64,000 bases of DNA, from assembly GCF_018977255.1 (NCBI RefSeq), contig NW_024704756.1:16678001-16742000 (forward strand). The letters run 5' to 3'. Within the stretch, counting starts at the first letter, position 1, and every line of letters begins with the position of its first letter. The notes beneath the pieces were generated by a model that saw only the letters and a program-made list of their open reading frames with translations, was not told where the DNA came from and made no database searches. Below are positions 232-56,854 of this stretch, piece by piece. Source of the stretch: Callorhinchus milii (taxonomy: Eukaryota). The position numbers and the translations under genes are program-made.

Positions 232-1085
232 CTGGAGGTTTGATTCCCAACTGGTCCTTCAGGTAATTCATGAATACGAGCAGACCACAGTTGGGGTTAG
301 CAAGAAAATACTTGTGCTCTGTAATTACAAGAGAATCCACACTGACTTCACAGTCACAGGAACGGTGAATTCGTAATAATAACAATAATATTCCTTACAT
401 TTGAATACAGCGCCTGATAACGTCATTGAGGTGTCTCAAAGCTCTTCACAGAATATACTATCAAGTGGATTGACTGTTTATTTTGTGGGCAAAACCCGAC
501 AGCCAATTGCACCCAGTGGTTAGTTAATTAATGAATGAAGTAAGAAGCTTCAGCTCACAAATTACTTTGCTACTTTGACTGCACTTTTGGTCATCTTTCA
601 TCTCAGGAGGACGTCTCGAAGCACTTCACACAGTTGAAAAGAGACGAACGAACGAACGAACGAACAAACAAACAAACAAACAAAGGAGGAAATACAAATG
701 TGCCGAATTGTGGTTAACAAATGAAGGAAAGGCGTCCAGGAGATAAGTGAGGCATTTATGTTGGGAAGAGAGTGAGAGGGACACACACACACACACACAC
801 AGAGGTAAAGAGGGGGAGAGAGACACACACACACACTATTTTCATATCCACAATGGCGCTGGTCGCAGGCAGTGGGCAGGTCGGTGAGTTCTCTCGCGTA
901 GATTTTGTTTTAAACCCACGTAACGTTTGGAAGCGCTTGTTCTGAGGCCGTGACCTTCGATGACCGTTCAGCCGGTGGAGAGGTTTGGTCGGGTTTGGCT
1001 GTTGGCGTTTTGGCTGCAGTGACTGATGTCCCCGGACCCCGCGAGGTGAGGTGAGCTCACCTCCGTACCAGACATAGATGAACAT
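232..1085 (-). CDS. CXorf65: CXorf65 homolog (CXorf65/C22orf15 family), coding exons 1-2; gene continues off the left edge
   Basis: Exon 1 is 1085-1061 (25 nt, MFIYVWYG, donor GAG|gtgagc). Exon 2 is 318-232 (87 nt, acceptor tacag, donor gtaacg). Spliced: MFIYVWYGEHKYFLANPNCGLLVFMNYLKDQLGIKPP, which aligns with human CXorf65 [37 protein letters not shown] (recalled). It lies on the same strand as, and downstream of, IL2RG, as in human Xq13. Confidence 0.8.
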
Positions 1086-1829: not shown

Positions 1830-2812
1830 GCGCACGCTCTCTCGCTCTCTGTGGAAAGCGTAACGGAACCTCGATCGGGAACGCAGGAGAATAGGGAACT
1901 TGAGAACTAGAGAGAGAGGGAGTGAGAGAGAGAGAGAGAGAGAGCGATGTGTAACAGCGAGATGGGAGGAGCTCCTCTCTCAAACACCACCAGCCGGTAA
2001 AGCAGAGAGAGAGTCCAACGATATTTTTGTTCTCTTTCTCTCTCTCTCTCTCTCCCTTTCGAACACCGCAAGAGGAAAACCACAATCCTCTCTCTCTCTC
2101 TCTCGCTCGCTCTCTCTCTCTCTCTTTTTCCCTCTTCTCCATGGACGCTGCTTGACCTGCTGTGTGTTTCCAGCGCCGTCTGTGTTTGCAGCAGAGCAGA
2201 GAGAGGCCGGGTTTGGTTCAGGGGGTCGGGAATGGTTGGCGAGCGCTCAGCGGGAGGACAGAGCTTCCTGCAGCTGTGTGTCCTCATCTGGTTGTTGACC
2301 GCACAATCCGCAGAGATCAACACACGGCCCGACTGTGAGTAACCGCTTCGCGCTTCCCTTTCTGACGGGGGATTTTTTCTCGTCGTTGGGGGAAAAAAAT
2401 TTGGTTCTTCTTTTTTTTTTGCTGCTTTTCTTCTCTCTCTCCCTCTCTTTCTCGCTCTGTTTCTCTCTCTCACTCTCTTTCTCATTAGCTCTCTGTTTCT
2501 CACAGTCTCACTCTCTTTCTCTCTCTGTCTCTCTCTCACTCGCACTGTCTCAACAACAACAAAATTACATTTATAGAGCGCCTTTCACGTCGGGAGGACG
2601 TCTCACTCTCTCTCTCTCACTCTCGCTCTCTCGCTCTCGCTCACTCTCACTCTCGCTCACTCTCGCTCGCTCACTCTCGCTCACTCTCTCTCGCTCTCTC
2701 TCGCTGTCACTCTCGCTCTCTCTCACTCTCTCTCGCTCTCTCTCTCGCTCTCTCACTCTCTCTCGCTCTCTCTCTCTCACTCTCACTCTCTCTCGCTCGC
2801 TCTCTCTCTCTC
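1735..2812. repeat. (CT)n/(CTCA/CTCG)n microsatellite complex with short local duplications
   Basis: Long CT/GA runs seen directly. The motif 'ttcgaacac..gaaaac..caatcctctctct' occurs near 1742 and near 2057. Confidence 0.9.
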
Positions 2813-2818
2813 GCCCGG

Positions 2819-2846
2819 TCTGAGAATTCTCAGAAACTTGACTTCC
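2819..2846 (+). promoter_or_regulatory. Candidate promoter elements of the IL2RG-like paralog: STAT GAS site and ETS core
   Basis: TTCTCAGAA at 2827-2835 overlaps the 16-bp palindrome TCTGAGAATTCTCAGA. ACTTCCG follows, just before ATG 2855. Motif match only. Confidence 0.35.
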
Positions 2847-2854
2847 GACGGGGA

Positions 2855-2942
2855 ATGGAAGGCAAAGTGCTGGAAATTTCTAGAAGCTTTCCGTCACTGT
2901 TGTTTTCCTTTCTTTGGCCCAAGGGAAGCTCCGAGGCTCTGG
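2855..2942 (+). CDS. Candidate signal-peptide exon 1 of the IL2RG-like paralog
   Basis: MEGKVLEISRSFPSLLFSFLWPKGSSEAL loosely parallels the IL2RG leader (..[13 protein letters not shown]). It ends in phase 1 as required, but the donor (G|gtgtaa) is weak. Confidence 0.35.
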
Positions 2943-3564
2943 GTGTAACCAGTGAAACCTGTTGGTTCAGGACAGAGGGGCGGGAGGAGTGTGTGGGCTT
3001 TCTGTATAGAATAACATATACTCCTGGAGGCGAACCCAGGGGTTCAGCTGCTGCAAATGCAAATACAGTACTATTATTATTATCAATTGTAGATCCTCAC
3101 ACTCCATGCCCTGGCACCTCCCTACCTCTCCCACCTGCTTAGCCCCCAACCCACCACCTGCCGCCTCTGCTCAGCCAACTCCAGGCTCCTGTCCATCCCT
3201 CGTCCCCTCCCCTCCACTCCACCATCGGTGGCCTCCAGCCACTTACGCCCCGAAACTTGGGAACTCTCTCCCTCAATCCCCTTCCACCTTGCCCGTTCCT
3301 TCCCCCATTTTCAGATCATACCTATGGTCACCTCCTCCCTCCCTCCCTCCCTCCGGCCCCCCCCCCCCCCCCACCCCCCCACCCCCGGCTCGGTGTCAGG
3401 CTCCGTCTGCCACTGTTAAGCCCTCCAAGACGCTGCCCGGGGTGAAAGGCGCTGTATAAAAGCAAGTTGTTGTTGTGTTATTACAGGTTAAATCATTCTG
3501 TAAAGGTAGTTTCAGTGATGGTCAACCAGACCAATAGCACTGCCATGTTACAGAGGGACGGATG

Positions 3565-3960
3565 TCATTTTCTCAGTATGTTTGAACTTCCTGCAGTAAC
3601 TATTTTTGGCAGCATGTTGATGTTTTGTTCACCAGTTATCTTGTTGAGCCTTTTCCGAATAGTCTTATTCACAGTCCCAGCAGCACCGATTAGTATAGTA
3701 ACTGTCTTTTATACACGGCCTTCATATTTTAAGGTTATTGTTATTATTTTTATTATTATAACGTCCGCATTCAATTTGCAGGTCAACATATTTCCTAGTT
3801 TTCTCTCGTTCCTTATTTCTTACATCGTAATCAATAATACTACACGTACAATCTAGTTGTTTTTTTGATGATAGTATCTGCTTGTTACAGATTACTGTCC
3901 TGTCTGCGTGTACCTGTGACTCCCAAATCCCTGATGACTTTCCTAACTCAGTGCCGTGTT
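3565..3960 (-). mobile_element. Decayed C-terminal restriction-like endonuclease region of an R4/Dong(Rex6)-type non-LTR retrotransposon
   Basis: Minus-strand pieces read IWESQVHADRTVICNK..IIDYDVRNKEREKTRKYVDLQIECGR and KTVTILIGAAGTVNKTIRKRLNKITGEQNINMLPKIVTAGSSNILRK*. These match the recalled W-D..TD..NRPD..IID..KE.EK..KY.DL..E..R..IVIGALG..LQK..LLG...ILR pattern. Frameshifted. Confidence 0.65.
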
Positions 3961-4109
3961 TGGATATACGTCGCATTCGCGACAGTTCTAGATTCTAAAC
4001 CGCTTCAATCCACGACTGTTTGGCTGCCCCATTTTGGCCACAAAACATACATTCAGTTCACTTCATAGTATATCCTGTGAAGGGCTTTTGAGACGTTTCG
4101 AAGACGTGA

Positions 4110-4435
4110 TAATAATAACAAGAATAATCCTCGCATTTGATCAAGCGCTTGTCACATCTTCGAGACGTCTCAAAGCTCTTCACAGAATAGACGGTGAATT
4201 GAATTGACTGTACATTTGTGGGTGAAACGCGGCAGCCAATTGTGCACAGCAGCGTCCCCACAAACAGCCGTGGATTGAAGTGACCAANTTTTTTTTATCA
4301 GTGGTTTTTTTTCTTGAGGGATTATTATCAGGGTTGTGGAGTGAGGAAACTTGCCCGAGGTTTCGCCCTGACTGTGAATCGACCTCAAGTGTCTCACTTG
4401 CGAGGCGAGTGCTCTAACCGCTGAGCTACAGGATC
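4110..4435 (-). mobile_element. tRNA-derived Deu-type SINE
   Basis: tRNA-like head (ctgtagctcagcggttagagcactcgcc..), Deu core (gctgtttgtggggacgctgctgtgcacaattggctgccgcg) and tail ending in gcgaggattatt. Confidence 0.8.
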
Positions 4436-4533
4436 CCTCAAGGTGCAGTGTCAAATGCAAGATTATTATTATAATGTTGATGATGGTGATGTGAGCTCCT
4501 GATGGCTAAGCTCTGTGTTTGCGATCCCTACAG

Positions 4534-7500
4534 CTGTGGAGTGTATTTACTACAATGGTGAGGTTTTGGAGTGCACGTGGAGTCTGGCTGATGGCAATGT
4601 GAACTACACCATGTACTACTGGTGAGTGTGGCTTTGACACTGAGTCGGAATCTCCCCGAGAGCAGAACTTCTCAAATCAGGTTTTCCTGCTTCCTGTAGG
4701 TTTGTCCCATGTGTGTCGGCTTGGCCCAGTGGTAGCCGCTCGTCTCTGAGTCACAAGCTTGTGGCTTCGAATCCCACGTCAGGACTTGACCTCGCACAGT
4801 CTAAGCTGACCCTCCAATGCAGCGCTGGGGTGTGCTGCGTTGTCGGAGGATGAGACATTCAATCGAGGTCCCGTCTGCCTGTTCGGGAAGATGTTAAAGA
4901 TCCCGCGGGGCTATTCGAAAAGAGAAGGGAGTTTTTCTCTCTCTCTCTCTCTCCCGGTGTCCTGGCCAACAATCCCCCAAATAAAAGTGGTCACTCACTC
5001 CATGGCTGTTTGTAGGATATTGTAGGACAGTGTGCTGAGTGCTGGGGTGGGGGAGAGAGAAAAGAGAATGTTCTAGAGCTTTGCCTGGGTGTAAAAGCCC
5101 TGATGTGAGACCCTGTCCCAAGTATGCAGGGAACTAATGGTCGAGTCTGTGAGAGAGATTTCGACATTGTCCAAGTCTTCAGCTGTAATCTACTCCAGGG
5201 AGTTAGAGAGTTTTTATTTATATATATATATATATATGTTTGTCTCAAGGTGTTTTAAAAAAAGGGAATGAGAATTGAATAGTCCCCCTGATCCTACTCC
5301 TCTCTAGCTCTGCGACTTCAACACCATAATCAACCTTTCTGCTTCCTCCATTCAGCAGACATTGGTTTGCTCCATGTCCCCCATCCTGCCCACCCCACCA
5401 TTGATTTATCTGCCCCCACCTCTGGAACTCCATCCCCGAATCTCTCCGCCTCGCCTCCTCCCTTGCCTTTTTCAAGGCCTGTCTCAAGACCTATCTCTTT
5501 AACCGTGTCACACTCCCACCCCTGCTCTCCCTGCCTTCCAACCCTCTTGATTCTCACCCCTCTGCAAACCCTTAACTGTCCAGCACCTTGAGACATCATC
5601 CGACGTGAAAGGTGCTGTAGAAATGGAACCTGTTGTTGTTGTTGGAATAGTAACTGTTGCACACCTTCTCTCCCAGGTACACATCAGAACCAGCTGAGGA
5701 ATGTGGCTCCTACATCCAGCAGGACGGCTACAACATTGGCTGCAAGTTCACAAAGGACAAGATCCGGGAGTTTGTGAATTTTCACGTGCACCGGATTGGG
5801 ATCAATGGCTCGGAGAGCGTGTTCCCCCCCAACCAAACCTTCCAGCTGCAGGACCAAGGTACGGGGGACAAGAAAGGCCTTTAACAGCACCTTTTGACCA
5901 TCGCTCGCAGCGCTTTGCAGGAGATTAACGTCAGGTGCAGTGACTGGGTTTGTTGGTAGGCGGCAATTTCGCATCCGTGAGATCACGCGAGGCGAATGCT
6001 GCGTTGACCTGGGGGATTGTTGGCCACACAAGTGGGGAGGACCTGCCTTTGCTTTTGTGGTGGTGCTGTGGGAACTTTGATGTGCAGTTAAAGAGGAGAT
6101 AGATGGGACCTGAGTTTAATGTCCTCATCTGTAGGATCGTACGCCCGACTACACAGCCCTCCCCCTCCCACCCCCCTCGCCAGCTCTGCACTGGCCACAA
6201 TCTTCCAGATTAAAAGGTTATTCACCTCATGGTGCTCTGTGGGCATTGGGTGGATTGGCTTATTCTGCGTGTGGTGCCAAGCACTTTGAGACATTCTGAC
6301 TGGTTACAAAAGGTGTAACAAACGTGCGAATGCCACGTTATGTATATAAATGGTATTGCGGCAACTTTCTCCTGGACGATGTGAGGCTTGTAGGAAACTG
6401 CCTGGAGTTTCGTTGCTTTCTCTGAATCTCGAGCTCGCGGAGACTTGGGTTAAATTCAGTTTATGGAACGTTCAGGTTATGTTTTTTCAGTGAAACCCAA
6501 TCCTCCGGCCAACCTGACCGTCAACGCCATGGCCAACAGCAGCATCTCCCTGACCTGGGAGGCGCCCATGATCCCACGCTGTCTACAGTACGAGATCAAA
6601 TACAGGAGCAACAAGGACAAAGACTGGCAGGTACCGCGAGCCAATTTACTCTTGCTTTCCTGCACGTATGAGTGTTAGAGTGATCCCAGCCAATACTCCA
6701 CCATTAACAACAAGTGGAAGCTCGTCTCGCACGTGAGAGGACCCGGGTTTGATTCCCGGGGCAGGGCAAATGTTTCCTTACTCCACACGCCCCTGTTTTC
6801 CCAGCAGTAAGTAGGAACCCGGCTGTTAGTCAATTGGTGGATCACTTTCTGGGGGTAATAATTCCTCCCCCCAAAAATGTGACTCAATTCACGATGGAGC
6901 CAGGCTGACCCACATTCTTGTTTCTTATCCACAGACAGAATATTGCAACGAACAAACAAAATTCACGTTGCCGAGCGTGAACCCAGACGACCTCTACGTG
7001 TTTTGCGTGAGAAGCAAAATCAACGATTTTTGTGGCCTGAGTCACCTGTGGAGTAAATGGAGCTCGCACATTTACTGGGGAGAAATCATCACAGGTAAAT
7101 TCCCCCCTCATCCCCCTGTTCACCAGTATCTGACTCCCCACGGAGTCACTTTGACACTGGGATCTAATGCGTTCACTTACTAGTTCCTTAATCAGAAATC
7201 CGTTACAATTCCTGACTCCGGGACCAGATCGTGTCACGGAGCAGTGCAGTTACACGCCTCCAGTTAATGTGGAAGAGATTGCCCCCTGTGTTCCCACAAC
7301 CCGGACTCCTTGTTGAGCAACATCTTTAATAAATAGTCCTGTAGGTTAGTGGTTAGAGTTCTCACCTCACAAACAAGAGAGACCTGGGTTTAATTCCCGG
7401 GCAGAGCAAAGCATTGGGCAAGTTTCCTTACTCCACACGCCTCTGTTTACCAGCAGTAAGTAAGAACCCAGTTGTTAGACGATTGGCGGATTGCTTTCTG

Positions 7501-9703
7501 GGGATAATAATCCCTTCAAAAGAACAAATAAATAATAACGTGGTCACTCAATCCACAACTGTTTGTGGGACGCTGCTGTGTGCAATTGGCTGCTGCCTTT
7601 TGCCCACAAAATATACAGTCACTAAACGTTACAGTATATTCTGTGAAACGCTTTGAGACGTCTCAACAACAAGATAATGTGCTATATCAAATGCAAGGAT
7701 TATTATATTATAATATTATTATTGTCTTACAGAGCCCGAGGAGAAGAATTTCTATTTCTGGATCCTGATCTCGATCCTGGCTGTTGTGGTGTTATTGCTG
7801 ATTATTCTGTGCCGGTTACAGAATAAAAGGTAAACTTGGTCTTGCTTTAGGCTCAGAAAGAGGCTGATTGAGGAACTTTGCATCGATTAGGTCAGAGACA
7901 GACATGACACCCCCCCCCCCACCCAGTGTTTCAGCCACTAAGCCCTGAAACTCTGGAACACTCTTCCTCTATCCCTCCGTCTTGCCCCTTCCTTCCCCCA
8001 TCTTCAGATTGCGCCTGGAAACCTTCCTCCTCGACCGTGCCTTCGGTCACCTCCCTCTCTCCCCCGGCTCGGCATTAATAATAATAATAATCCTTGCATT
8101 TGATATAGAGCTTTTCACATCTTCTCAACGTCTCAAAGCGCTTCACAGAATAGACTGTAAAGTGAAGTGACTGTATGTTTGTGGGCGAACGCGGCAGCCA
8201 ATTGCGCACAGCAATGTCCCACAAACAGTCGTGGATTGAAATGACCAATTTATTATTGTTTTTCTTGAGGGATTATTATCAGGCTGTGTGTGGAGTAAGG
8301 AAACTTGCCCAAGGTTTCACCCCCTGCCGGGAATCGAACCCAGGTCTCTCACTTGCAAAGTGAGTGCTCTAACCACTGAGCTACAGCTCTCTGTTTGTGC
8401 TCCTTACCTAAAATTAAAAAGATGTGGTCACTCAATCCACAACTGTTTGTGGGGACGCTGCTGTGCGCAATTGGCTGCCGTGCTCCGCCCACAAAATATA
8501 CAGTTAATTCACTTTAAGATATACTCCGTGAAGCGCTTTAAGAGGTCCCAAAGATGTGATAAGGCGCTATGTCAAATGCGAGGATTATTATTATTATTTA
8601 ATATAAATCCTGGCCCTTGGACTCGGGTGGAAAGGGCCTTCGTTTGTCTTGTCGTAAGGTTGAAAAATTGTTGCACCATTTCCAATCGAACGTGTCTCTC
8701 AGGTTACAGTCAATCTTTCGGACGTCGGGACCTGCTCCTGAACAAACAATTGTGCCCCTGATCGAGAAAATCAATCAAACCAACGGGACCATCAAGGTAC
8801 ATACAATAAGAAACTGTTATTATCTAATAATACAGGGCAATCATTCATTATACAATAACACAGGACAATACTAAGCCTTTGATCCAGGACATGTGGAGTC
8901 AGGATGGGTCACAATAAAAAGGGGTTCACACCCTTAACTGGTGTCAAGTTTAGTGATTGCGATCTGTAGCCAACAAATGCAGCAGCACCTTGCAGTCACA
9001 CAGGAGCTTTCATGTGGCGGTCTGGCTCAGTTGCAGCACTCTCTGAGGCAACAGTTGTGGGTTTGAGCCCCACGTCAGGACTTCAAGCTCACAGTCTCGG
9101 CTGACGCGACAGTGCAGTGCTCGGGGAAGCACTGAATTGTCAGGGTCACCCGTCCGTCAGGTGAGCTCCTGTCTGTGCTGCGGACGGTGAAAGTGGATGG
9201 TAAAGATTTTGCAGCGCTATTCAAAAAGAGAAGTGAGTTTCTCTCTCACTGCCGGTTTCCTGGCTGACAATTCCCCCAAATAAAACTAGTCACTCACTTC
9301 GTGGCTGTTTGCGGGATATTGCTGTGTGCAAAATTGGTTGTAAAATTTGCCTACAAAGTACAATCACGACCACGTGAGCTTCGAGACGTCCTCCTGAGGT
9401 GATAACAAATGGTTATATTTAGTCTTATGTTTGTGTGAAAGAAACTTTTATTAGAATGAGATAAAATGAAGAGAACCTTGTAGGGGGAGTGGGGTGGGGG
9501 GTGGGGGGGGGGGTGAAGGCAGGCAATTCATTTGAATTGGAAAGAAAGAGTGGGAGGAGGGAACGTCACCCAGGATAACTGGGAGAAGAACAGCAGTCAA
9601 ACAGGAGGAGCCTCCGACACAAGAGGGAAGAGGAAAGGAAAATTCTGATGTCTTTTTTCTCTCGGTGTGTTTTCTCTGCCAGGAAACTCAAGAGGTCCAG
9701 TAA
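4534..9703 (+). CDS. IL2RG-like class I cytokine receptor paralog with truncated cytoplasmic tail (exons 2-8)
   Basis: Exons: 4534-4621 ([23 protein letters not shown]), 5677-5858 ([22 protein letters not shown]), 6491-6630 ([25 protein letters not shown]), 6935-7094 (..[17 protein letters not shown]), 7733-7829 ([22 protein letters not shown]), 8703-8796 ([14 protein letters not shown]..), 9683-9703 (ETQEVQ*). All introns are GT-AG, the frame is open, and exon phases equal those of IL2RG. AATAAA repeats lie at about 9966-9990. Confidence 0.88.
4713..5030 (+). mobile_element. Older SacSINE1-like DeuSINE copy (further copies near 9015-9390, 45718-45960, 47675-48050, 58434-58730)
   Basis: Pattern gtcggcttggcccagtggtagc..tctgagtcacaag..gtggcttcgaatccc..ggatgagac..gttaaagatccc..ccggtgtcctggccaa. 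Family name from recalled consensus. Confidence 0.7.
7337..7722 (+). mobile_element. tRNA-derived Deu-type SINE immediately upstream of the paralog TM exon
   Basis: Head, Deu core and (TTA)n tail. The tail ends about 10 nt before the acceptor at 7732. Confidence 0.85.
8075..8385 (-). mobile_element. tRNA-derived Deu-type SINE, inverted relative to 7337-7722
   Basis: Reverse complement reads ctgtagctcagtggttagagcactcactttgcaagtgagagacctgggttcgattccc..Deu core..gcaaggattattatt. Confidence 0.88.
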
Positions 9704-14339: not shown

Positions 14340-17300
14340 CTAAACCCTCACGTAGATGTTTTTGTTTATGCCGTACCTATTGCTCTCTGCTAAACGCACC
14401 ACGTCAATGAAGAGGGTCTCGGGCTGGACCCCTCCTCCGTTGCTGGGAACCGTGTCCTTGCCCAGGAACACTGGCCTCTCCAAGTGCTGCCAGAGTCCTC
14501 GCTGCTGGGTGTCCTCTTTGGAGTAGGGAGGGGGCTCGCTCACGAGGCATGCGTTCTCGTGGTAGATTGGTTTGAAGCCCTCCAGCGTGTCCTTGGGAAC
14601 TCCCAGCCAATCCTACAGTTCAACACACATTACAATTATACACAGCACCAGGACAGTCAGGGATTCTGACCTGAGAATGGGTGGGATCAGGAAGGGTGGA
14701 GGGCAGGGAGGGTAGGAGGGTGACCGAAGGCGCGGTTGAAGAGGAAGGTCTTGAGACGGGCCTTGAAGGAGGCAAGGGAGAGGGCAAGGCGGAGGGACTG
14801 TGGGAGTGGCATCTCAAACACTTACACAGATGTAAAGCTTCAGAGAGATCAACAACATCCTGTTTATATAGTACCCTTCAAGATCATTTACTCTGTGTCT
14901 GATTGTGGTTCAATACTGTGCACATATTGGCCGATGCGTTTGCCTACAAATACACAGTAACTACGCTTTGGAGCAATTCCCTGTGAAGCGCTTTGAGGTG
15001 TTTCGCTGTTACAATCCCACTTATAAAATACCGGGATGATTATTGTTATAATTATTTTTCTACCTGAAAGTTCCCACCAAAGTTGTCGAACAGAGAGTCA
15101 AACCTCCTTCCTGGGTTTGGAATCTTTGGGATGATGATGACCTTGAGTCTAGAAGCAGAAGAAGAGGAAAATAAACATTGGGATAAACCAGGACTTTGGG
15201 GAATGAGCCACTGTCCCTGAGCCCAGTTAGGAGTTTGGCAGCAATGGGGACTGTTCCCTTTTCATGCAACTTCTCAACTGAGATACCAGAATCTGTCAGT
15301 TCTGCTCTGGACCACTGGATGGTGCGCCGAGGCATGTAAGATCCTTCCCTTTGGGGTGATGAGGGGCGGGTGGGTGGGGGAGGCAGAGGGTAATCAATGA
15401 CTGATTTGGAATGAGGTTGGTGTCAGAATGCTGGATTCATTTAAGAAACAGCTCAGTGCTGTGATGGTGGACATTAGGATTGGGAACTCTGAGACCAAAT
15501 GCAATGAAGGGTCTTCTTTTTCCAAATCAATCTTGTGATTCCCCTCCCACGCAGCAAGCAAAGGCACGTGGGGAGGCACTGAGCGAAAACAAGAATCGGA
15601 TTCTCTCCCCACACCTCAAGACCCACCGGCAAAGCTGACATGAACAACTGGGTGAAATGAGCAGAGTGTGAGCCCCGGATCAAAACAGGTCAATCTCCTT
15701 CAGGCAAAGTCACATAAAGGGTGAGTTTAGCAAAACAACACAGAGGGTTGGTAGGATGTTGAAATGGCCCATCAAACATGTTGCTTTAAGCAGAATCTGT
15801 AATTGCTTTTAAAAGGGAATTAAAGAATTGTTTGGGAAGTGGAAAATATAAAAAGGGTGAGAGGTGGAGGGGTGAGAGGGGAGGGGGGAAGGTAGAAAGT
15901 TGGGACTAAACAGGTAGCACTCTCACTAGAACAGGTAGTATGAGCCGAATGACCTCCTTCTGTGCTATAAAATTCTACGATCCTCACGAGAAAATAGTAA
16001 TGCTGAAATGAGGTGAGAGAAAGAGAGAGAGAGAGAGAAAGTGCTGATGTAATAAGGCTTTGTGCTACTCACTTTTCATTCTTTAGTATAAGCACGAGCA
16101 AAATTAGAGCCAAAATGATAAGTCCAGGGATCAAAGTGATGCACATTTGAAGCCTGGTGTCTCCGGGAGTTTCAGTGGCGTCTACGAAACAGAAAAAGAA
16201 ATTGTCCTGAATAAAGCGAATAACATTGGATTTACCTTCAGATTAAGATTGAAAAGGTTCCACAGTTGGGGCTCGGACATGCGATGGTCCTCTCCTGCCC
16301 CCGCACCCCCCAATCTTCCTTCCTCTCTAACCTTGGGGTAGTGTGGGGAAGGAGGGAGGTGCTGATACTTACCTAAATTGCCCCAAGTCACCGATGAGCT
16401 CCACTCACTCCAGAAGAGAGTTGTACCACAAAAATCGTTGATCTTAGCCCGTACTTTAAAGGTGTAGAGTTTCTTTGGGTCCACACTCGGCACGGGAAAC
16501 TTTGTTTGTTCTTGCAGGGATTCAATCTGTTTGTGGGCGAGAAAAGGGGAAAAAATAACAGAGTGGTATGCAATTTAAAGTTCACGGAATCTGTTTAATG
16601 GGTCATCTGAAGGATGCAACTCAGACAATCCAACGCTCCCTCCCCAACCAGGGCTGGAGTGTCAGCCTGGACTAACGATTTTAAAGGCTTGAACAGAGAT
16701 TAGTAATAGAGAGAGAGAGAGAGAGAGAGTGTGGTTAACCAAGGAGTGAGAGTGCTACCAACTGAGCCAAACTGAGCCCTGAAGGTACATCCGTGGGCCT
16801 GACATTATTCAAGCTCTCTCGGTACCTGCCAGTCTTTGTCCTTGTTGCTCTTGTACTTGATCTCATACTGCAGACAGTGTTGGATCATGGGTGGCTCCCA
16901 GCTCAGGGAGATCCCGTTGTTGGTTGTGGTGTTGACGGTCAGGTTTGTCGGAGGATTGGGTTTCACTGGGAAGAAAGCACAGAAATGTGTCGATCGGCCC
17001 CATCAGGTCTGCCCTAGTGGGGTTCCCCCAGGCTTAACCTGCTCCTGATTTCAAACCAATTCAGGGCTCAGTTCAGTCAACGAGAGGCTGAGTCAAAGCC
17101 GATCTTCCTGGTCAGTGAAAGCCAGCGAGCAAGGTGAGGTGGGGTGGAGTGGGGGGGAGGGGACGTGTGCGAGGGGAGAGTGGGCCGTGGGAGTCTACAC
17201 GCCCATCGATTTTTTTTTAATTTCAACTCGAGCCCGTTCCAGCTACTAAGAATTCCAGACACCAGGAATCTGGTCCGGTTCAGTGGCTAACAACCGTTAC

Positions 17301-20300
17301 CACACCCAACTAATCGCTCAATCTTTAGATTGTGGCTGAGAACCCCCTCCCAGTCCCCGCTCTGTGTCCCACCCCTCCACCTCCATGCCCTGTGTCCACC
17401 TGCCCCCACACCCGCATACCTTGGTCCTGCAGCTGGAAGGTTTGGTTGGGGGGGATCACCCTCTCCGAGCCAATGATCCCAATCCGGTTCACGTGAAAAT
17501 TCACAAACTCCCGGATCTTGTCCTTTGTGAAGTTGCAGCCAATGTTGTAGCCGTCCTGCTGGATGTAGGAGCCACATTCCTGAGCTGGCTCTGATGCGTA
17601 CCTGGGGGGGAAGGTGTGCAACACATCTTAGTTCAGGAGAGAGTTAGTGTGGATAATGTGAATAATGAACTGGGTATTCTTGCAGGGAATTAACTGATAA
17701 CTATTTAGTTGCTTTTGGTGGGATTCTGATCCACAGGTTCCCTCCCTGCATTCTGTGTAAAGGCATTAGGGTGGGTCGATGAGTGGCACAGTCTCCTCTA
17801 AGTCACAAGGCTTTGAGCTCGTTGTCTCGGCTGACATTCTAGTGCAGTGTTGGTGGAGCTTTGCACTAATAATCCTTACATTTCCTTTTTTTTGATATAA
17901 TGCCTTATCATGTCTTCAAGACTTCTTAAAGCGCTTCACAGAATATACTGTAAAGTGAATTGACTGTATACTTTGGATACAGTGGAGTCCTGTAGCTCAG
18001 TTGTGGAGTCCTGTAGCTCAGTGGTTAGAGCACTCGCTTTGCAAGTGAGAGACCTGAGTTCAATCCCAGGCAGAGGGCGAAACCTTGGGCAAGTTTCCTT
18101 ACTCCACACAGAGCCTAATAATCCCTCCAAAACCAAAAACAATAATAAATTGGTCATTTTCAATCTACGACTGTTTGTGGGACATTGCTGTGCGCAATTG
18201 GCTGCCGCGTTCGCCCACAAATATACAGTCAATTCACTTTACAGTGTGTTCTGTGAAGCGCTTTGGGACGTCCTCCCGACGTGAAAAGCGCTATATCAAA
18301 GGCAAGGATTATTATTATTATTATTTTGCGGGCAAAACGCGGCAACCAATTGCGCACAGCAGCGTCCCACAAACAGTCGTGGATTGAGTGATTAGATTTT
18401 TATTTATTTATTTTTGAGGGATTATTACCCCTGGAAAGCGATCCGCCAACTACCGGGTTCCTACTTACTGCTAAGTAAATAGAGGTGAGTGGAGTAAGGA
18501 AACTTGCCTCAGGTTTTGTCCCATCCGGGAATCAAACACAGGTCCTCTCGCTTGCGAGGTGAGTGCTTTAACTACTGAGTTACAGGGGTCTATTTGGCTC
18601 ATCTCATTGTTTCCTCCCTCACCCACCCTCACGCGAGGATAGGATCGTGTTTCAGTATGAGGGCAAACAACCTCACTGACACTCACTCTCCATCCAGGCT
18701 TCCACATGAAGAATGGCCACTTGGACGCGCATGAGACATCAGTGCTTAGAACCAACCACAGTTGTCAGCTTGAAGAGGAGGACGGGAATAAGAGAGAGAG
18801 AGACAAGAGGCCATTAAACCCCTCTTTGCTGGGTTGCATTTGAGCCACACTCACCAGTAGTGCATGGTGTAGTTCGGTTCCCCATCACTGTGACTCCAGG
18901 TGCACTCCATGAAATCGCTGTTGTAGCAAATGCACTTCACAGCTGCAGAGACAACACAGAGAGCTTACACACTGCCACCTGCCAGCACGCCCGCCTTCCC
19001 GCCAGGGCAAGAGAGTACAAGAGAGGTTCAAACCAAGAAGATCCCATTCTTCTTCCATATTTGCGGTATTTCATAAAGGAATTCCTAATAGGATTTCTTT
19101 TTCCAAAGAATATTGGAAATTACTAGATTAGCCATGTCAGTTAGGCCGCAAAATACAAAGTCACTACATTTTACAGTACATTCTGTGGGGTGCTTTGAGA
19201 CGTCTTGAAGACGTGATAATAATAATAACAGTAATCCTTGCATTTGATATAGCACTTTTCAACATCTTCTCAACGTCTCAAAGCTCTTCACAGAATATAC
19301 TGTAAAGTGAATTGACTGTATATTTGTGGGCGAACGCGGCAGCCAATTGCGCGCAGCAATGTCCCACAAACAGTCGTGGATTGAAAATGACCAATTTATT
19401 ATTGTTCTGTTTTGGAGGGATTATTATTAGGCTCTGTGTGGAGTAAGGAAACTTGCCCAAGGTTTCGCCCTCTGCCTGGAATTGAACCCGGGTGTCTCGC
19501 TTGCAAAGCGAGTGCTCTAACCACTGAGCTACAGGACTCCACTAAAGTGAATTGACTGTATATTTGTGTACAATTAAGGCACTGTATCAAATGCAAGGAT
19601 TATTATTATTAATATAAAGACAGACAGACAAATTATTGCCTCAATCCAACTTTATGCTGATGCACTGAAACTAAAATCCTTTGCCCGAAGCTAAAATCTT
19701 TTCTTAGAAAAGAACTGGAAATCTGATGACTCGAATTGTTTCATTTCAAAGAAACTGATCTTGTGAGAGAAACTGTGAAGTGTAATGACTGTGAATTTGT
19801 AGGCAAATGCGGCAGTCAATTCATGCAGAGCAAAGCCCCTCAAACACCAATGACTGATTCTGATCTGGCCAGGACTCCAGGAGGAACTCTCTTTTTGAAT
19901 AGTGTCCTGGGATCTTTAATATCCACCTGAACAGACAGATTGGGACTTGGTTTAAGGTCTCATCCAAAGGATGGCATCTTTGATGGCATCTCTGATGGCA
20001 CGCAGCACTCTCCCACCACGACATTGGCATGTCTGCCTACACTGAACTGAAAGTGCCAACGTTAGGACCAGAACCCACAAGCTTCTAAGTCACAGGGAAG
20101 ATATAGGCTGCACAAAAATATAACTGAATTGAAGAATTTTCCACAATACTTGATAAGGACTGCAGAGAAACACAGTTTCCAAATTAAACCGCCATTAAAC
20201 TGCCGTGGCCAAACATAGGATCTTAGGGCACAGAAGGAGACCATTCGGCCTATCGTGCCTGTGTCAGCTCTTTGAAAGAGCTACCGGCCAGACAACAACA

Positions 20301-22106
20301 ACAACAACAACAAGATTCCATTTATAAAGCGCCTTTCACGTCAGGAGGACGTCCAGACCCACTTCCCCGCACTTTCCCCAGAGCCCTGGAAATTTTTCCA
20401 CAATTACGTTGCAGTTAAATGTTCAATGTGGAAAAATGGAATAAAAAGAACTCGGATACAGATGAATAAAAATATCCTCTGAAATTGCTAAATGTGTCAC
20501 AAAAAATTCCACTGTGGGTTTTGCGATCAGAGATTTCAATCAGGTGTTTGAGGTTTACTGGGGGTTGGTGAATGATGTCAGACCAATGCTCAAATGAATA
20601 TAGATCTGTTAATCAGTTTCATCTCAAAGAAACGGCCTGAATTCCTACCTGACCTCAGCTTGTGAGACATTTTGCCTTATAATAATAACAATAATAATCC
20701 TTGCATTTGATATAGCGCTGTTCACGTCTTCTAGACGTATCAAAGTGCTTCATAGAATAAATTGCCTTAAAGTAGCACGCAAGATCTTTTTGTTTTAAAA
20801 TATAAGATTTTAATTTGGAAGATGGTTTTCTGATTCTTAAAAAGAATCAGTTTCCAAAATTAAGATTGAATTTAAAAATTTCCAGATTATCTGCACATTA
20901 TTATTATTATTATTATTATCGACATCATCATCATCTTTGATACTGGAACAACAACAATAACAAATGACATTTACACGGCGCCTTTCAAGTCGGGAGGACG
21001 TCCCAAGACGCTGGACAATCAGGGATTTGGACTTGAGTTGGGGGTTGGGGTCAGGAAGGGTGGAGGGCAGGAAGAGTGTGGGTAGGAGGGTGACCGAATG
21101 TACGGTTGAAGAGGAGGATCTTGAGACGATGGAGCGGGCCATGTGGGGGACATGGAAGGGTGGTTGATGCCAAAATGCTGGATTGATTTGACAAATAGCC
21201 TACTGCTGCCTTGAGGAGATGGCAGGATGAGGTATTCAGGAAGGATTAGGTTAATTATTCGAATCGATTCAGCGTTTTTTTTTATCCGTTTTGCAATGTC
21301 CTTGGTTTGGGCTACACGGAAAAAGATAAGATCTTAACTCAAGAAAATAATTCTAAATGATCTCTTTTCTGAGTTTCTAATCAGTCATTGTTTTTGTGGG
21401 TGGTGGTGGGGGTGGGGGGCGGTGGACTGGGTGGGGAGGGTTGAGCGGTGGAGAACAGAAGATAAGAGCAGTTGAGATTATTGGAATGTGAGGTCGAATG
21501 GAGACCTTACGCTGGGACTCACAATGTCAATCATGATTAGACAATCAAATTAGTTAGGAAATAATATCTGGGAGATACAGCTTCTAGTTTGGGACATGAC
21601 AAGTGCAGGCGACAGCTGGGATAGTGGAAGGTGAATTGGATGGACCCTGGCCTTCATCGTCTAGAAAATTTAGAAAATTCTTATGTTCTTATGTTTTATA
21701 TCTCTATTCCACCTCCCAATCTCTTGTTCTTAACCATTCAATTCCACTCCCGCCCCCCGCCAAGAAAAATAAAACAAGTCTGACGGGTTAGGAAGAATTC
21801 TAGATACATGAAAGGCACTGTGTAAATTATTTTCTTATTCTCTTGAATTTAGATTTAACTGTTTTTTCCAAGTAGCCCAAACCAAGCGTTAAAAAAAAGT
21901 CTAAATGTATTTATTTCTGATCCGATGGTGTGGCGCACTTCAAATTCGTTTCCTGTCAGGTACTGGGCGAAAAAATACTTTTAGTCTTAACTTTTAGTTG
22001 AGAAAGACTCACGTTCAGATGATACATTGGGCTCAGCTGAGTGGAGAAGAAGCAGACAGATGAAGGGAAACAGCTCCCCAGATCCCAGAAAGTAACTGCT
22101 AGACAT
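14340..22106 (-). CDS. IL2RG: Cytokine receptor common gamma chain, 8 exons, 374 aa
   Basis: Exons: 22106-22013 ([31 protein letters not shown]), 18942-18855 ([18 protein letters not shown]), 17601-17420, 16965-16826, 16526-16373 (WSEWS), 16181-16073 (TM), 15148-15064 (Box1 LKVIIIPKIPNP..LF..GNFQ), 14612-14340. The last exon begins DWLGVPKDTLEGFKPIYHENACLVSE, versus human gamma-c [26 protein letters not shown]. CDS is 1125 nt and in frame. Synteny with CXorf65 agrees. Confidence 0.9.
17982..18325 (+). mobile_element. Young full-length tRNA-derived Deu-type SINE with a 21-bp head duplication
   Basis: gtggagtcctgtagctcagt occurs twice, followed by A/B boxes, Deu core and tail (TTA)n. Confidence 0.9.
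19232..19542 (-). mobile_element. Young full-length tRNA-derived Deu-type SINE, inverted partner of 17982-18325
   Basis: Reverse complement closely matches 18003-18310. Confidence 0.9.
19701..19756. promoter_or_regulatory. Cluster of STAT, AP-1-like and IRF motifs in IL2RG intron 1
   Basis: TTCTTAGAA (19701), TGATGACTC (about 19724), GTTTCATTTC (= GAAATGAAAC, ISRE-like, about 19738) and TTCAAAGAA (about 19745). Motif match only. Confidence 0.35.
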
Positions 22107-22164
22107 CTTGCGAGTCTAATCCTCAGTCGATTTTATTTCCATTCCATTCACCTAGCTCTCGCTC

Positions 22165-22390
22165 TCAATGTGGTCTGATGACAATAACGGCTCAAGAGCA
22201 AGTGTTTCCTTCCCTGCGTGCGCTCTCTCTCTCTCTATCTACACACACATATATATATACATGTGTATTTCCTCTGTTCTACAACCCAGAGGCAATCGTC
22301 ATTTCCTCACCAATGATTCTCCCACACCAAAGTGCAGAACTTTTGCTTTGCTGTGATGCACTTTCAGGGATCTGAGAAAGAAAACCGCAG
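22165..22390 (-). promoter_or_regulatory. IL2RG proximal promoter with ETS (GAGGAA/GGAA) and RUNX-like sites
   Basis: atttcctc at 22267 and 22301, gtttccttcc near 22204, tgtggt near 22169 and aaccgca near 22383, all upstream of ATG 22106. The mammalian IL2RG promoter is ETS-dependent and TATA-less. Confidence 0.4.
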
Positions 22391-23643
22391 AGAAGTTAGC
22401 AAAGGAGATTAAAGTGACCAGTGCAAGCAGGACATCAGCTGTCTTCAGAGTTTAGCAGCAGCTACAGATGACTGGACACCTGAGATTTAATCTGCTTGGT
22501 TCCCCATGTTCGGGATCCACTGAGACCACGTTTAGTTCAGACCCTGCAAGAATCAGCTACAACTTTCTAAGTGAAAGGTAAAAATAAATGGAATTATATT
22601 TAAATTATTATATGTGCCACAAACAGACAGCGAACCCTGAATTGTGATCTGTTTGTGACAGAAAAGTTTATTTCCAAAGATCTTATTAGTTTCTGCCTCT
22701 GCCCCCCACCCTTTGGAACACCATCCCACAGTCCCTCCACCTCGGCCCCCCACCCCCCTTGCCTCCTTCAAGACCATCCTCTTCGACCGCACCTTTGGTC
22801 ACCCTCATACCCCTATCCTGTAAACATACGGTCAATTCACTTTACAGCATATGCTGTGAAGCGCTTTGAGACTTCTAGATGTGAAAAGCACTACATCTAA
22901 TGCAAGGAATTATTATTATTATAATATTATTATCCTCTCTACCCCCCACCCCTCTTGATCCCAACCCCCAGCATGGGTCCAAATCCTTGACTGTCCAGCG
23001 CCTTGGGATGTCCTCCTGATGTCACAAGCGCTGTGTAATTTGTTGTTATTTAATCTCTTACCAAGCAGGAGGTTTGCTATGCCCCATATCTATTGGACTG
23101 AGCAGATTGCTACAAGAACTTGCTTTTATATTAGAGCCACTCACGGAGCATAAGCATCTCAAAGTACTTTGTAAAGTAAAATTGTTAGAAACTGAGATGT
23201 GGGGGAGGTAAACACGACACAATCTGTACCAACGAGGTCCCAGAAATAAGTTCACTCTTCAAATTGTAAGGTTTTCTTTTGTTTCATGGTTAACAATTAG
23301 ACAAGTCACAACTTCTCACCATGGAGAGATGTTTCAGAGGGGACCATATCGAGACGTGCGTAAAATTTTAAATGGGATTGAAAATCTAAACCCCCAACGG
23401 GGCTTCAGGATGGACCAAGACGGCAGAACGAGAGGAACGAGAGATTTAGAGTTTCAAAGGAGGCAATTTCAGGACCGACGCGGGAGGTTTTCGGTATCCC
23501 CCGGAAGGCCAAGACATTGGGCTCTTTTAAAAAACCGCCTGATGCTGTGATGGAAGGTTTCGCTGTTCCTGATGGATGAGATCAAATGGGCCAAAGGGCT
23601 TCTTCATCCGAACTCACCTTGTGAGGTGAGGTTTGAGTTCAAC

Positions 23644-24070
23644 CTCTCTCTCTCTCTCTCTCTCCCCCCCTGCCCCTCCCCCTCTCTCCCCCTGCCCCAC
23701 TTTCTCCCCCGCCCCCTCTCCCTCTCTCCCCCTGCCCCACCTTCTCCCCTTGCCCCTCACCCCCCCTGACCCTCTCTCCCCCTGCCCCACCTTCTCCCCC
23801 TGCCCCGCCCCCTCTCCCTCTCTCCCCCTGCCCCACCTTCTCCCCTTGCCCCTCACCCCCCCCTGACCCTCTCTCCCCTGCCCCACCTTCTCCCCTGCCC
23901 CTCACCCCCCCTGACCCTCTCCCCCCCCCCCTCTCCCCCCCCGACCCTCTCCCCCCTGACCCTCTCTCACCCCTCTCCCCCCCTCACCCTCTCCCCTCAC
24001 CCTCTCCCCTCACCCTCTCCCCCTGACCCTCTCCCCCCCTCACCCTCTCCCCTGACCCTCTCTCCCCTCC
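23644..24070. repeat. C-rich polypyrimidine minisatellite (ccctctctcccctgccccaccttctcccc..; copy at about 38309-38720)
   Basis: Tandem imperfect units seen directly. Confidence 0.9.
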
Positions 24071-24104
24071 TGTCAGTCACACTCCCCCTCTTTCTCGCTC
24101 TGTC

Positions 24105-24250
24105 CCTTTAAACGCGAAGATGGTAACAGAGCGGAGGGGGCGGGGCCTGTGCCGGTGTCTGTGATTGGCGGAGAAGCGGCAGGAAACGGATACAATAATG
24201 TTACCACTTTGATCGACAGACGACCGGAGTCTGAGGCCCAACAGCTGTGA
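24105..24250 (+). promoter_or_regulatory. CNPY3 CpG-type promoter
   Basis: AAGATGG (YY1-like), GGGGCGGGG GC box near 24137, inverted CCAAT (gattggc) near 24162, and ETS cores (caggaa). Confidence 0.5.
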
Positions 24251-24254
24251 TAGG

Positions 24255-24850
24255 GCCCGAGCCCCCCCCCCCCCCGAGCCCCCCACAGCCTGAGCCCCCC
24301 CACCCCGAGCCCCCCCTACAGCCTGAGCCCCCCCCCCGAGCCCCCACAGCCTGAGCCCCCCCACCCCACAGCCTGAGCCCCCCCCCCCCGAGCCCCCCAC
24401 AGCCTGAGCCCCCCCTACAGCCTGACCCCCCCCACCCCACAGCCTGAGCCCCCCCCCGAGCCCCCCCACAGCCTGAGACCCCCCCCGAGCCCCCCCTATA
24501 GCCTGACCCCCCCACGAGCCCCCCCACAGCCTGAGCCCCCCCCCCGAGCCCCCCCACAGCCTGAGCCCCCCCCCCCGAGCCCCCCCTACAGCCTGACCCC
24601 CCCCCGAGCCCCCCCACAGCCTGAGCCCCCCCCCCCGAGCCCCCCCACAGCCTGAGCCCCCCCCCCCCCCCCGAGCCCCCCTACAGCCTGACCCCCCCCC
24701 CCCACAGCCTGACCCCCCCCCCCACAGGCTGACCCCCCCCCACCCTACAGCTTGACCCCCCACAGCCTGACCCCCCCACAGCCTGACCCCCCCCACCCTA
24801 CAGCCTGACCCCCCCCCCCCCCACAACAACCCCACAGCCTGACCCCCAGC
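24255..24850. repeat. Minisatellite of cagcctgagc(c)n-gagc(c)n-a units ending at the CNPY3 ATG (copy at 38905-39478)
   Basis: Many tandem units with variable C runs, seen directly. Confidence 0.92.
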
Positions 24851-24851
24851 C

Positions 24852-27800: not shown

Positions 27801-29459
27801 TAGTCACTGACATCGTATCGTTTCTGTTTGCAAACCAGGGGATGAGCGAGACCTTTCAGACCCTCCATGGCCTCGTTCATAAAGGTGTTAAAGTGGTGAT
27901 GGATATCCCCTACGAGCTGTGGAATGAGACGTCTGCTGAGGTGTCGGACATGAAGAAACAGGTACTTGAAGATCGGTTGTCACAGTCCCGGCCCTAGACT
28001 GAACGTAGGATCAGAGAATGTTACAGCACAGGAGGCCCCAATGTAGGGTGTTTTCTTCCATTATTAGTATTGTTTCAGGAACATACAAGGGCAAAAAAGA
28101 TCATCGCGGTCCATCTCAAGTAAATAAGTGGTGTTACCCCTCTATCTGTCACACCCTTCAATTGATTCCTTCATCAAATAACTTGCTATTTCCCTTTCAA
28201 AGTTTGCTGGCAGGATCTGCCTCCCTGGCTTGTCAATTCCACACATTCACCTCTCTCACTCTCTCTCTCTCTCTGTCAAGCAGTTAAATCTGCCTATTCA
28301 CTGTTGTTCTTCTTGGGCTTGGGTCCTAGTCTCCTTTAGGAACATAGGAATAGGAGTAGGCCATTCAGCCCCTCAAGCCTGCCACAGTTTTGAGTTCAGG
28401 AGAGTTGGAACAGAGTCGGGCTGATGCGAGTCAGTAAGGGATAGATATTTGGTTCTTCTAACTTTTTAGGATCAGGTGGCAGATGACTGGTCAATCTCCT
28501 TTGAGAGGGAAGGGAGTGGAGGCTATCTCACCCTATTGTGTCCTATCTTTTGCTCCTCAGTGTGATGTGATGCTGGAGGAGTTTGAAGATGTCATTGAAG
28601 ATTGGTACAAAAACCATCAGGAAGATGATCTCACCCACTTCCTGTGTGAACAGCATGTGCTGAAGTCTCACGAGAAGGGTATGGAACCCAGAGCTAATGG
28701 GGCTTGTGTTCATTTAATATGTAAAGTGGAGGAAAAATCAGTTTAACTATCCCAAAGGTTTACTGTCTGGGATCTGCTGGGCCAAATATAGGAATGGGAG
28801 GAGGCCGTTCAGCCCATCCAGCCTGCTCCACCAGTGTACATAATTGATCTGTCTGTTCTCTGGTGGACGTTAAAGCATCTCATGAGGCTATCGCAAAAGA
28901 GAAGGGAGCTTCTCCCAGTGTCCTGGCCAACAATCCTCCAGATGAATCGAGCATTCACCTTGTTGGTGGGCGTTGGTGCACTTTGCAGCCCAAATGGTTG
29001 CCATGGTTGCTTACAATAAGTCACTATGCTTTACTGTAATTACTTGTGAAGAGTTTAGAGACGTTTCAAAAGTGAAAAGGAGGTATGAAAATGTCTTGAA
29101 GGTCTGTCCAGGAATTGTGTGTTTCAGTGCAATTTATGGCATCGTATTGGAACTGTAGCGCAGTTTAACCACTTACAAATGGGAATGTTGAATGTGTTTC
29201 AGAATGTTTGAAAGAAGTGTGGACAGCCCAGAAAGGCGACTTGGAAGCGATTGACGAGAAAAAGAAAAAGAAGAAAAAGAAGACGAATGATGGGAAAAAG
29301 AAGAAGGAAGGGATCAAAAAGAAAGGGAAGAAAATGAAGGAGGTAAAGAAGCGAGAGGAAGGGGAGGACAGTGACCAGGAGCAGGGGCACAACAGCTCAT
29401 CTGATGAGGAAAACATTCAACAGGAAACTCCACTGTTTCACAAACCTGATGAGCTGTGA
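24852..29459 (+). CDS. CNPY3: Protein canopy homolog 3 (PRAT4A, gp96 co-chaperone for TLRs), 6 exons
   Basis: Exons: 24852-24954, 26591-26714, 27155-27251, 27839-27961, 28561-28678, 29203-29459. Signal peptide, then [85 protein letters not shown], a Lys-rich tail and ER-retention PDEL*. AATAAA at 29792. Confidence 0.95.
25711..25842. repeat. 57-bp-arm inverted repeat (Penelope-terminus-like) with a hammerhead ribozyme core on the minus strand; copy at 40336-40467
   Basis: Arms are 25711-25767 and 25786-25842 with an 18-nt loop. The minus strand reads CTGACGA-agggtc-gtg-gaccc-GAAA-CGTT. Confidence 0.75.
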
Positions 29460-56700: not shown

Positions 56701-56854
56701 CAATGCCCTTTTAACAAAAGGAAGGATGTAATTGCGAAATTATTTCTGCAAAAGTATATATTGTAATTTCCTGTCTCTGTCATATGATCTTCCTGTGGTG
56801 GGAGAATATTTTTTTTTACCAGAGAGACTGGGATTACAAAAAAGATAATTAAAA

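Follow-up and report, generated by a model that had tools for sequence, protein, structure and literature searches.

The window analysed here is a stretch of 64,000 nucleotides from the elephant shark, Callorhinchus milii (contig NW_024704756.1), in which two convergent genes, A and B, encode receptors of gamma-c (common gamma chain) type (Table 1). Judged by the sequence of its ectodomain and by its Box1 motif, gene B is IL2RG, the gene of the common gamma chain proper. The ectodomain is that of a two-domain class I cytokine receptor (Pfam CRLF2-like D1/D2), the Box1 motif follows the membrane helix, the best match by sequence among solved structures is human gamma-c (E 1e-36, phmmer, PDB; IL-13Ralpha2 follows with 3e-28 and CRLF2 with 4e-12), and the top 11 Foldseek matches of the predicted fold are human gamma-c chains. 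The peptide of gene B exon 3 matches the C. milii gamma-c-like protein P0004 at 100% and C. milii P0005 at 88%. Gene A follows the same eight-exon plan, with a degenerate Box1 exon as exon 7 and a tail of ~38 residues, and a motif check of its protein record found no Box1 motif for JAK3 docking.

Exon models derived from the window DNA recover the ectodomains of both genes. In the sequencing runs labelled as RNA (see below), the exon 2-exon 3 and exon 3-exon 4 joints of gene A are seen in both runs and its exon 4-exon 5 joint in X5, while the exon 4-exon 5 joint of gene B is seen in both. A single gene with alternative exons at both ends is ruled out by the two physical copies on opposite strands, the exon-3 copies being inverted with 11.5 kb between them. 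The neighbourhood includes genes for a CNPY-family protein, for an ATG4 peptidase and for an ankyrin protein, as well as an exon of a CXorf65-like gene on the strand of gene B; the latter is a weak synteny marker, its 28-aa Pfam match lying below the curated cut-off, and CXorf65 adjoins IL2RG in the human genome.

Table 1. Features of the elephant shark gamma-c locus (positions in the window).
Feature	Position	Strand	Remarks
CXorf65-like gene exon	233..316	-	Pfam Il2rg, E 8e-4, 20 bits, under the 27-bit cut-off; 28-aa piece
Gene A, tailless gamma-c paralog	2232..9703	+	294 aa, record P0031
Gene A exons	2232-2334, 4534-4621, 5677-5858, 6491-6630, 6935-7094, 7733-7829, 8703-8796, 9683-9703	+	7733-7829, transmembrane (TM); 8703-8796, degenerate Box1 exon
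Exon 2 tract, oldest visible	4534..4632	+	pairs with 18942-18844; donor-side intron stub of ~11 nt common to gene B
Conversion tract, gene A copy	5655..5867	+	22 nt of intron 2, exon 3 (5677-5858), ~9 nt of intron 3
Exon 4 tract, older and more decayed	6488..6640	+	pairs with 16968-16816; 88% identity; last 25 exon bases identical
Gene B, IL2RG proper	14340..22106	-	369 aa, record P0004
Gene B exons	22106-22013, 18942-18855, 17601-17420, 16965-16826, 16526-16373, 16181-16073, 15148-15064, 14612-14340	-	16181-16073, TM; 15148-15064, Box1
Conversion tract, gene B copy	17411..17623	-	exon 3 = 17601-17420
Tandem repeat, probable assembly artefact	17622-29898 / 32322-44550 (within 17622..44550)		98.3%; ends at a 25-N gap

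Near-identity of exon 3 in the elephant shark

The two copies of exon 3 differ at 8 of 182 nt, and the residue list given in a preliminary description of this DNA, with seven non-synonymous changes and one silent, is exactly reproduced (A/B: T/A, E/E, E/Q, K/N, H/N, N/I, S/R, F/I). The tract that contains the exon measures 213 nt at 94.4% identity (12 mismatches, BLAST E 8e-91) and is the longest of the 467 inverted pairs found in the window. Homology reaches 22 nt into intron 2 and ~9 nt into intron 3 and then ends; to the earlier statement that the introns cannot be aligned outside ~22 nt before exon 3, these ~9 nt and short donor-side stubs at exons 2 and 4 have to be added. Exon 4 differs at 18 of 140 nt, the number first reported as approximate, and exons 2 and 5 are, as had been described, clearly more diverged. 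The dS/dN values between A and B (Nei-Gojobori) are 0.74/0.24 for exon 2, 0.027/0.051 for exon 3, 0.26/0.117 for exon 4 and 2.2/0.37 for exon 5, and the deficit of silent changes in exon 3 is significant against exons 2 and 5 together (P=3e-9) and against exon 4 (P=0.036, Fisher). The elephant shark pair, which is among the less homogenised, has its latest tract in exon 3. Because 22 intronic bases lie inside this tract, the template was probably DNA rather than spliced RNA, and conversion templated by spliced RNA is disfavoured.

Four of the 24 listed sequencing runs were compared over 16300-17850, their DNA-like and RNA labels being guesses. Both DNA-like runs, X1 and X4, contain a contig with intron 2 and the 5' letters of gene B, which shows 0 differences, and an A-type contig with 4 differences that departs from the reference at 17623. 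The two types converge on a single 165-nt exon-3 contig that runs on into intron 3 of gene B and carries, at five 3' sites, the A letters at four and the B letter at one; its depth is 1.15 and 1.52 times single-copy, where merging of both bubbles by the assembler would give 1.30 and identical copies 2.0. Among the RNA-labelled runs, X11 holds a contig with all 8 A letters and exon 2 of gene A as a loose end, and X5 one with the three 5' letters of A and the five 3' letters of B. The loose ends and joints, compared by eye, fit the splice junctions of both genes, and the same two exon-3 proteins occur in transcript-derived and re-annotated records (P0029, P0027, P0031) from two annotation generations. 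In this species the similarity of exon 3 is real and no product of polishing or consensus calling, as the preliminary description had allowed it might be: independent runs carry both versions with both intron flanks.

The start of a tandem repeat lies within the exon-3 tract, 2 nt from its end, and the repeat contains exons 1 and 2 of gene B, the CNPY-family gene and part of the ATG4 gene. A real duplication of 17622-32321 is disfavoured by single-base losses at the start of the second copy, by the gap at its end and by a single unbroken contig of run X4 across 17552-17850, and the repeat is probably an assembly artefact.

Long and short genes across cartilaginous fishes

Long and short gamma-c genes were compared in 18 species (one chimaera, 13 sharks and 4 batoids), with one isoform per gene, annotated protein records for every species other than the elephant shark, and exon splits set in all proteins by the elephant shark exon boundaries. 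Seven chondrichthyan records from six species, either single or multi-domain models, were left out, namely the multi-ectodomain models of Hemitrygon (P0006, P0072) and Leucoraja (P0073) and those of Amblyraja, Narcine, Hypanus and Ginglymostoma, in which a single gene of the two was found. The Box1 motif is present in 18 of 18 long proteins and in 0 of 18 short ones, and the short twin is open and full-length in all 18 species. In 17 of them the two records lie on contigs of equal size, suggesting linkage, and in four they have adjacent accession or model numbers. The short tails range from a few to ~40 residues; several sharks have paralog-specific conserved features in them (a basic stretch, cysteines), and by eye no motif common to the elephant shark and elasmobranch short tails was seen. 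In several species there are records of isoforms of the twin without the TM segment. Outside the cartilaginous fishes, no clear tailless TM twin was seen among 23 of at least 150 representatives of 50% clusters, many of which are truncated models, so that absence is not implied.

Mean identity between the long and short proteins within a species is 0.32 for exon 1 (n=15), 0.79, 0.89, 0.91 and 0.87 for exons 2 to 5, and 0.24 for exon 6, and between the long proteins of different species it is 0.56, 0.73, 0.61, 0.62, 0.65 and 0.57 for exons 1 to 6. The Box1 exon of the long tail is almost invariant, whereas the ectodomain is ~61-65% identical between species. In exon 3 the two proteins are identical in 5 of the 18 species and differ by at most one residue in 9, by 3-8 residues in 4 and by 15-22 of ~58 in 5; these last, drifted pairs belong to four carpet sharks and one skate and group partly by paralog.

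In the exon 3 tree the long and short labels change 15 times and 12 of the 18 pairs are sisters within their own species, and the tree of exons 3-5 has 15 label changes as well. Exons 1 and 6 together, which encode the signal peptide and the transmembrane segment, show one label change and group by paralog (split support 71). A constraint that holds the short genes together (monophyly of the paralogs) is rejected with p-AU 2e-8 in exon 3 and 3e-5 in exons 3-5. In quartets of closely related species, the exon 3 sites with a species pattern and a paralog pattern number 2/0 in mackerel sharks, 5/0 in catsharks, 3/0 in mobulids, 1/2 in bamboo sharks and 0/9 in the zebra and whale sharks, and exons 1 and 6 have paralog-pattern sites only. 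Conversion has gone on after recent speciations, since the exon 3 sites of the first three groups follow the species. Two hallmarks of concerted evolution are present, in the form of conflicting segment trees at the protein level and, for the elephant shark, of a local collapse of dS.

On the TM-exon profiles built from elasmobranchs, the short elephant shark gene scores 24.8 bits against the short profile and 6.9 against the long one, and the long gene 12.3 bits against the long profile and -1.6 against the short one. These scores favour orthology of the elephant shark twin with those of elasmobranchs. Both elephant shark signal peptides score higher on the short profile, and exons 1 and 6 do not reject a grouping of both elephant shark genes as a clade (p-AU 0.28). 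The pair is an old duplication whose ectodomain has been homogenised repeatedly, by a process still active and patchy, and recurrent conversion of an ancient pair is considered very likely. Gene conversion between the inverted copies, which the preliminary description had proposed from the elephant shark, is now more strongly supported, exon 3 grouping by species in 12 of 18 pairs where grouping by paralog would have spoken against it. The narrower idea that conversion keeps part of the D1 domain, exon 3, matched stands as to conversion, but exon 3 holds no special place in the class as a whole, exons 3-5 all being homogenised.

Proposed role of the tailless gene and competing explanations

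It is rather probable, on the strength of these sequences, that the locus holds two convergent gamma-c genes, one with and one without a Box1 tail, whose ectodomain exons are re-copied by ectopic conversion, and that the tailless twin acts as a dominant-negative decoy. The duplication would predate the split between holocephalans and elasmobranchs, placed at ~420 million years ago in PMC6238376. The inverted copies, 11.5 kb apart, may pair during repair, each tract would be limited to an exon and its splice signals because the introns no longer align, and the 8 differences in exon 3 would be ordinary mutations gathered after the last exon-3 event. Gamma-c alone binds cytokine weakly, and Box1 is required for JAK3. 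The twin, with cytokine-facing loops and the W-S-x-W-S motif, might join complexes of cytokine and private chain in the place of gamma-c; it would bring no JAK3 and signalling would be damped, and forms that skip exon 6 would have an equal effect as soluble proteins. Selection would retain the conversions that re-match the binding surface and purge those that reach the tail or the signal peptide.

The twin has kept the predicted ligand-binding surface and lost the signalling tail. Differences within species stand to those between species in a ratio of 0.17 at the 28 cytokine-facing positions of exons 3-5 and of 0.32 at the remaining 130, and a value this low is reached in 2 of 157 circular shifts, in a test that was not blind and used a partly provisional loop set and related species; the tighter matching of the loops is a hint in favour of the putative dominant-negative role. 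In the elephant shark, 24 of the 28 positions are identical, and the 4 that differ include the equivalent of H159 (H to R), which, with C160 and P207-S211, we take to be a cytokine contact of human gamma-c. A dominant-negative function is the simplest role to propose because the ectodomain is intact, Box1 is lost, the gene is retained in 18 species, isoforms without the TM segment exist and the loops are matched. That the twin is a decoy or brake on gamma-chain cytokine signalling could equally well prove right or wrong. More tentative still is the wider proposal that a dedicated dominant-negative gamma-c gene arose before the split and serves the whole class, selection using conversion to tune its loops to a fast-evolving chain, so that it would form a separately regulated rheostat over all IL-2-family cytokines, for which mammals would use a splice form instead.

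The lapse of exon-3 matching in 5 of the 18 species counts against the decoy reading and fits an alternative that is unlikely but ahead of the others, in which the copies are homogenised merely through the closeness of inverted genes, their match has no adaptive value and the twin could do its work without matching exactly. Patchiness by exon in the elephant shark points the same way, and the 7:1 ratio of replacements to silent changes is consistent with neutral drift since the last event. Passive conversion does not lead one to expect, however, a twin that has remained open and full-length in all 18 species and whose splicing is seen in both of the RNA-labelled runs compared, nor exons 1 and 6 that were never homogenised, nor loops matched more tightly than the remainder.

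Two other functions are improbable, to about the same degree. The twin may soak up a microbial or parasite protein that binds the gamma-c ectodomain, conversion renewing the bait as in the CEACAM family; the architecture resembles that of CEACAM1 and its decoys, as far as the accounts cited below describe them, and the ectodomain changes between species while the Box1 exon hardly does, but the tightest match falls on the cytokine-facing loops and no excess of amino-acid change is seen in exon 3. Alternatively, the twin may hold or present cytokine as an agonist or alternative co-receptor, or signal through its short tail. The conserved tail features of several sharks would suit such a role, and soluble receptors may be agonists according to the relevant passage of PMC11752881; against it, the tails are short, have no Box1 in any species and, by eye, share no motif between the elephant shark and elasmobranchs.

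A shade less probable again is a fuller version of the idea in the preliminary description, by which positive selection after conversion split surface residues and glycan sites of exon 3 for different ligand preferences. It draws on the seven replacements among eight changes, on the two of these that remove sequons and on a ratio of borderline significance when tested against strong purifying selection (P 0.008-0.07 for omega 0.17-0.33); with omega at 0.25-0.45 the ratio is no more than borderline (P 0.03-0.15). Exon 3 has 142.8 non-synonymous and 37.2 synonymous sites (79% non-synonymous), and seven of eight is the neutral expectation (P=0.48, or 0.29-0.37 with transition bias); dN/dS in this exon is not significantly above 1 (P 0.29-0.48), and its replacement ratio does not differ from that of the remaining exons (Fisher P=0.26). 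In an alignment with human gamma-c, the changed residues fall at K70, Q78, Q94, Q109, R114 and ~R117-R118, and the loop of the Y103 equivalent (F93) and the equivalent of Q127 are identical between A and B. The residues near the cytokine interface listed in the part of PMC7031511 concerned are K70, N71, K97, Y103, K125, Q127, N128 and R155. The changes miss the main cytokine-contact loop, 9 of the 18 species have 0-1 differences in exon 3, and selection on a few surface residues is left unsupported. The sequons are distributed as claimed, N-F-T in B only and N-G-S in A only. Two separate losses are more likely than a swap because, in elasmobranchs, N is common at the first site (23 of 34 sequences) and I is absent at the second (0 of 34), and each gene has likely lost a different one of the two glycan sites.

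Least credible by far are an assembly or polishing artefact, for which one may point to the probably false 12-kb repeat beginning right at the tract end and to the single merged exon-3 contig of the DNA-like runs, and independent recent duplications in each lineage: the former is at odds with independent runs in which all 8 variant letters occur along with the intron flanks of both genes and with the agreement of two annotation generations and transcript-derived records on both exon-3 proteins, and the latter is incompatible with the grouping of exons 1 and 6 by paralog.

Comparison with known systems

Gamma-c is the single shared hub for IL-2, -4, -7, -9, -15 and -21, is single-copy in humans, and its loss leads to X-linked SCID. 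If the proposal is true, a tailless twin that is repeatedly re-matched to the hub would add a new layer of regulation to the most ancient lineage that has adaptive immunity, where T-helper and regulatory circuitry is a matter of debate. No description of such a gene-converted twin in cartilaginous fishes was found in the portions covered of the literature searched, which included PMC7658486, PMC6936713, PMC6238376, PMC8226699, PMC4929537, PMC3964593 and a supplement of PMC3964593, the subscription journals of comparative immunology lying mostly outside coverage. In practice, reads, primers and whole-protein trees of shark 'IL2RG' mix two genes and call for caution. Several shark short twins have been named automatically 'IL-13 receptor alpha-2-like'; by their sequence this database name is a mislabel, and users of such names should be aware that several of these records are gamma-c twins.

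IL-13Ralpha2 is a short-tailed decoy from the same group of receptors, and the shark twin resembles it and CRLF2/TSLPR in its short cytoplasmic tail and gamma-c-related ectodomain, but differs from IL-13Ralpha2 in having two rather than three fibronectin domains and in being ~90% identical to the gamma-c of its own species. Teleost gamma-c duplicates are probably unlinked products of that group's genome duplication. Zebrafish gamma-c.a and gamma-c.b are likewise two gamma-c genes, one mainly lymphopoietic and the other of unclear function, and the relevant parts of PMC4929537 and PMC6936713 describe neither a tailless copy nor gene conversion. A mammalian parallel is the soluble gamma-c, an exon-6-skipped form that is reported to impair T-cell signalling, and signalling by IL-2 and IL-7 (PMC11752881, in the passage citing Hong et al. 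2014). It too is an ectodomain without a signalling tail, with the binding surface of the signalling chain, but as a secreted splice form of a single gene it is matched automatically, whereas the shark twin has a gene to itself, first exon included, is mainly membrane-anchored with TM-less isoform records of its own, and needs conversion to stay matched.

The analogy with paired receptors drawn in the preliminary description holds in form, but the shark pair is one of a signalling and a tailless receptor and apparently not of an activating and an inhibitory one. Siglec-5/14 and Siglec-11/16 belong to the paired receptors that evolve in concert. CEACAM1 and its ITAM-bearing or decoy paralogs, as described in the sections drawn on from PMC2832619, PMC11646289 and PMC7042247, share with the shark genes the arrangement of neighbouring paralogs with homogenised ligand-binding exons and distinct membrane and cytoplasmic exons, as well as an occasional escape from concerted evolution. 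CEACAM and Siglec proteins are Ig-family receptors of pathogens or sialic acid, found in mammals and with opposing ITIM and ITAM tails; by contrast, the shark pair consists of the shared subunit of class I cytokine receptors and a partner without known signalling motif, and apparently occurs in all Chondrichthyes, which would extend the concerted evolution of paired receptors beyond Ig receptors that bind pathogens, to the hub of a cytokine receptor family.

Direct repeats around the ATG4 gene

Two direct repeats affect the ATG4 gene (see the table). The copies of the longer one differ by 59 substitutions and 148 indel bases, with five single-base losses within the first 120 bases; its start overlaps by 2 nt with the end of the exon-3 tract, the probably gene-converted segment shared by IL2RG proper (gene B) and its tailless paralog (gene A). 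The repeat splits the ATG4 gene, and a 25-N gap marks its end. A misplaced contig that broke at the exon-3 repeat is the likely explanation. The shorter, near-perfect repeat leaves ATG4 with two sets of its 3' exons, and it is probably an assembly duplicate as well. The same window holds exon-like frames recognised by eye as a candidate BAFF-like protein, for which no Pfam match was obtained with the single piece scanned.

Direct repeats and candidate coding frames, in window coordinates
Feature	Position	Second copy	Strand	Identity
Direct repeat, 12.3 kb	17622-29898	32322-44550		98.3%
Direct repeat, 3.6 kb	44583-48208	49864-53492		99.75%
Exon-like frames, TNF-family BAFF-like type II membrane protein (candidate)	56849-61590		+	

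Exons of the two gamma-c genes

Two reciprocal A/B hybrids were encountered, with the switch point in a 49-nt identical stretch of exon 3: the protein record P0035 (UniRef V9L4Q0) has exons 1-2 from B and the remainder from A, and a contig of the RNA-labelled run X5, lying over window 17420-17602, has exon 2 from A and its 3' letters from B. Both are most likely transcript-assembly chimeras, but an inversion, by crossover, of the 11.5 kb that separates the exon-3 copies would yield the same hybrids.

The signal-peptide exon 1 of gene B (22106-22013) scores 10.9 bits on the elasmobranch short-gene profile versus 2.8 on the long-gene profile, so exon 1 may have been converted or swapped long ago in the chimaera lineage. 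In exon 4, one of the 18 A/B differences, at window 16856 (gene B coordinates), is missing in the DNA-like runs X1 and X4 and in X5, whose A-type contigs carry 17 differences instead of 18, and the site is apparently heterozygous in the RNA-labelled run X11. It seems to be a silent gene A polymorphism, with one allele sharing the letter of B. Exon 7 of gene A (8703-8796) has two reading frames, set by whether TM exon 6 is skipped, and the frame used after the TM resembles the ending of TM-less shark isoforms.

Related database records

Protein models with 2-6 tandem gamma-c ectodomains, i.e., a repeated block of exons 2-5, occur in batoids (P0006 and P0072 from Hemitrygon, P0073 from Leucoraja) and in P0130, P0131 and P0138, records that look like ray-finned fish. 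They may represent genuine receptors with several ectodomains, or tandem copies merged into one model. Short gamma-c twins are also present under the automatic name "interleukin-13 receptor subunit alpha-2-like" (P0041, P0049, P0074, P0077, P0079 and P0080), a wrong label that conceals the family.
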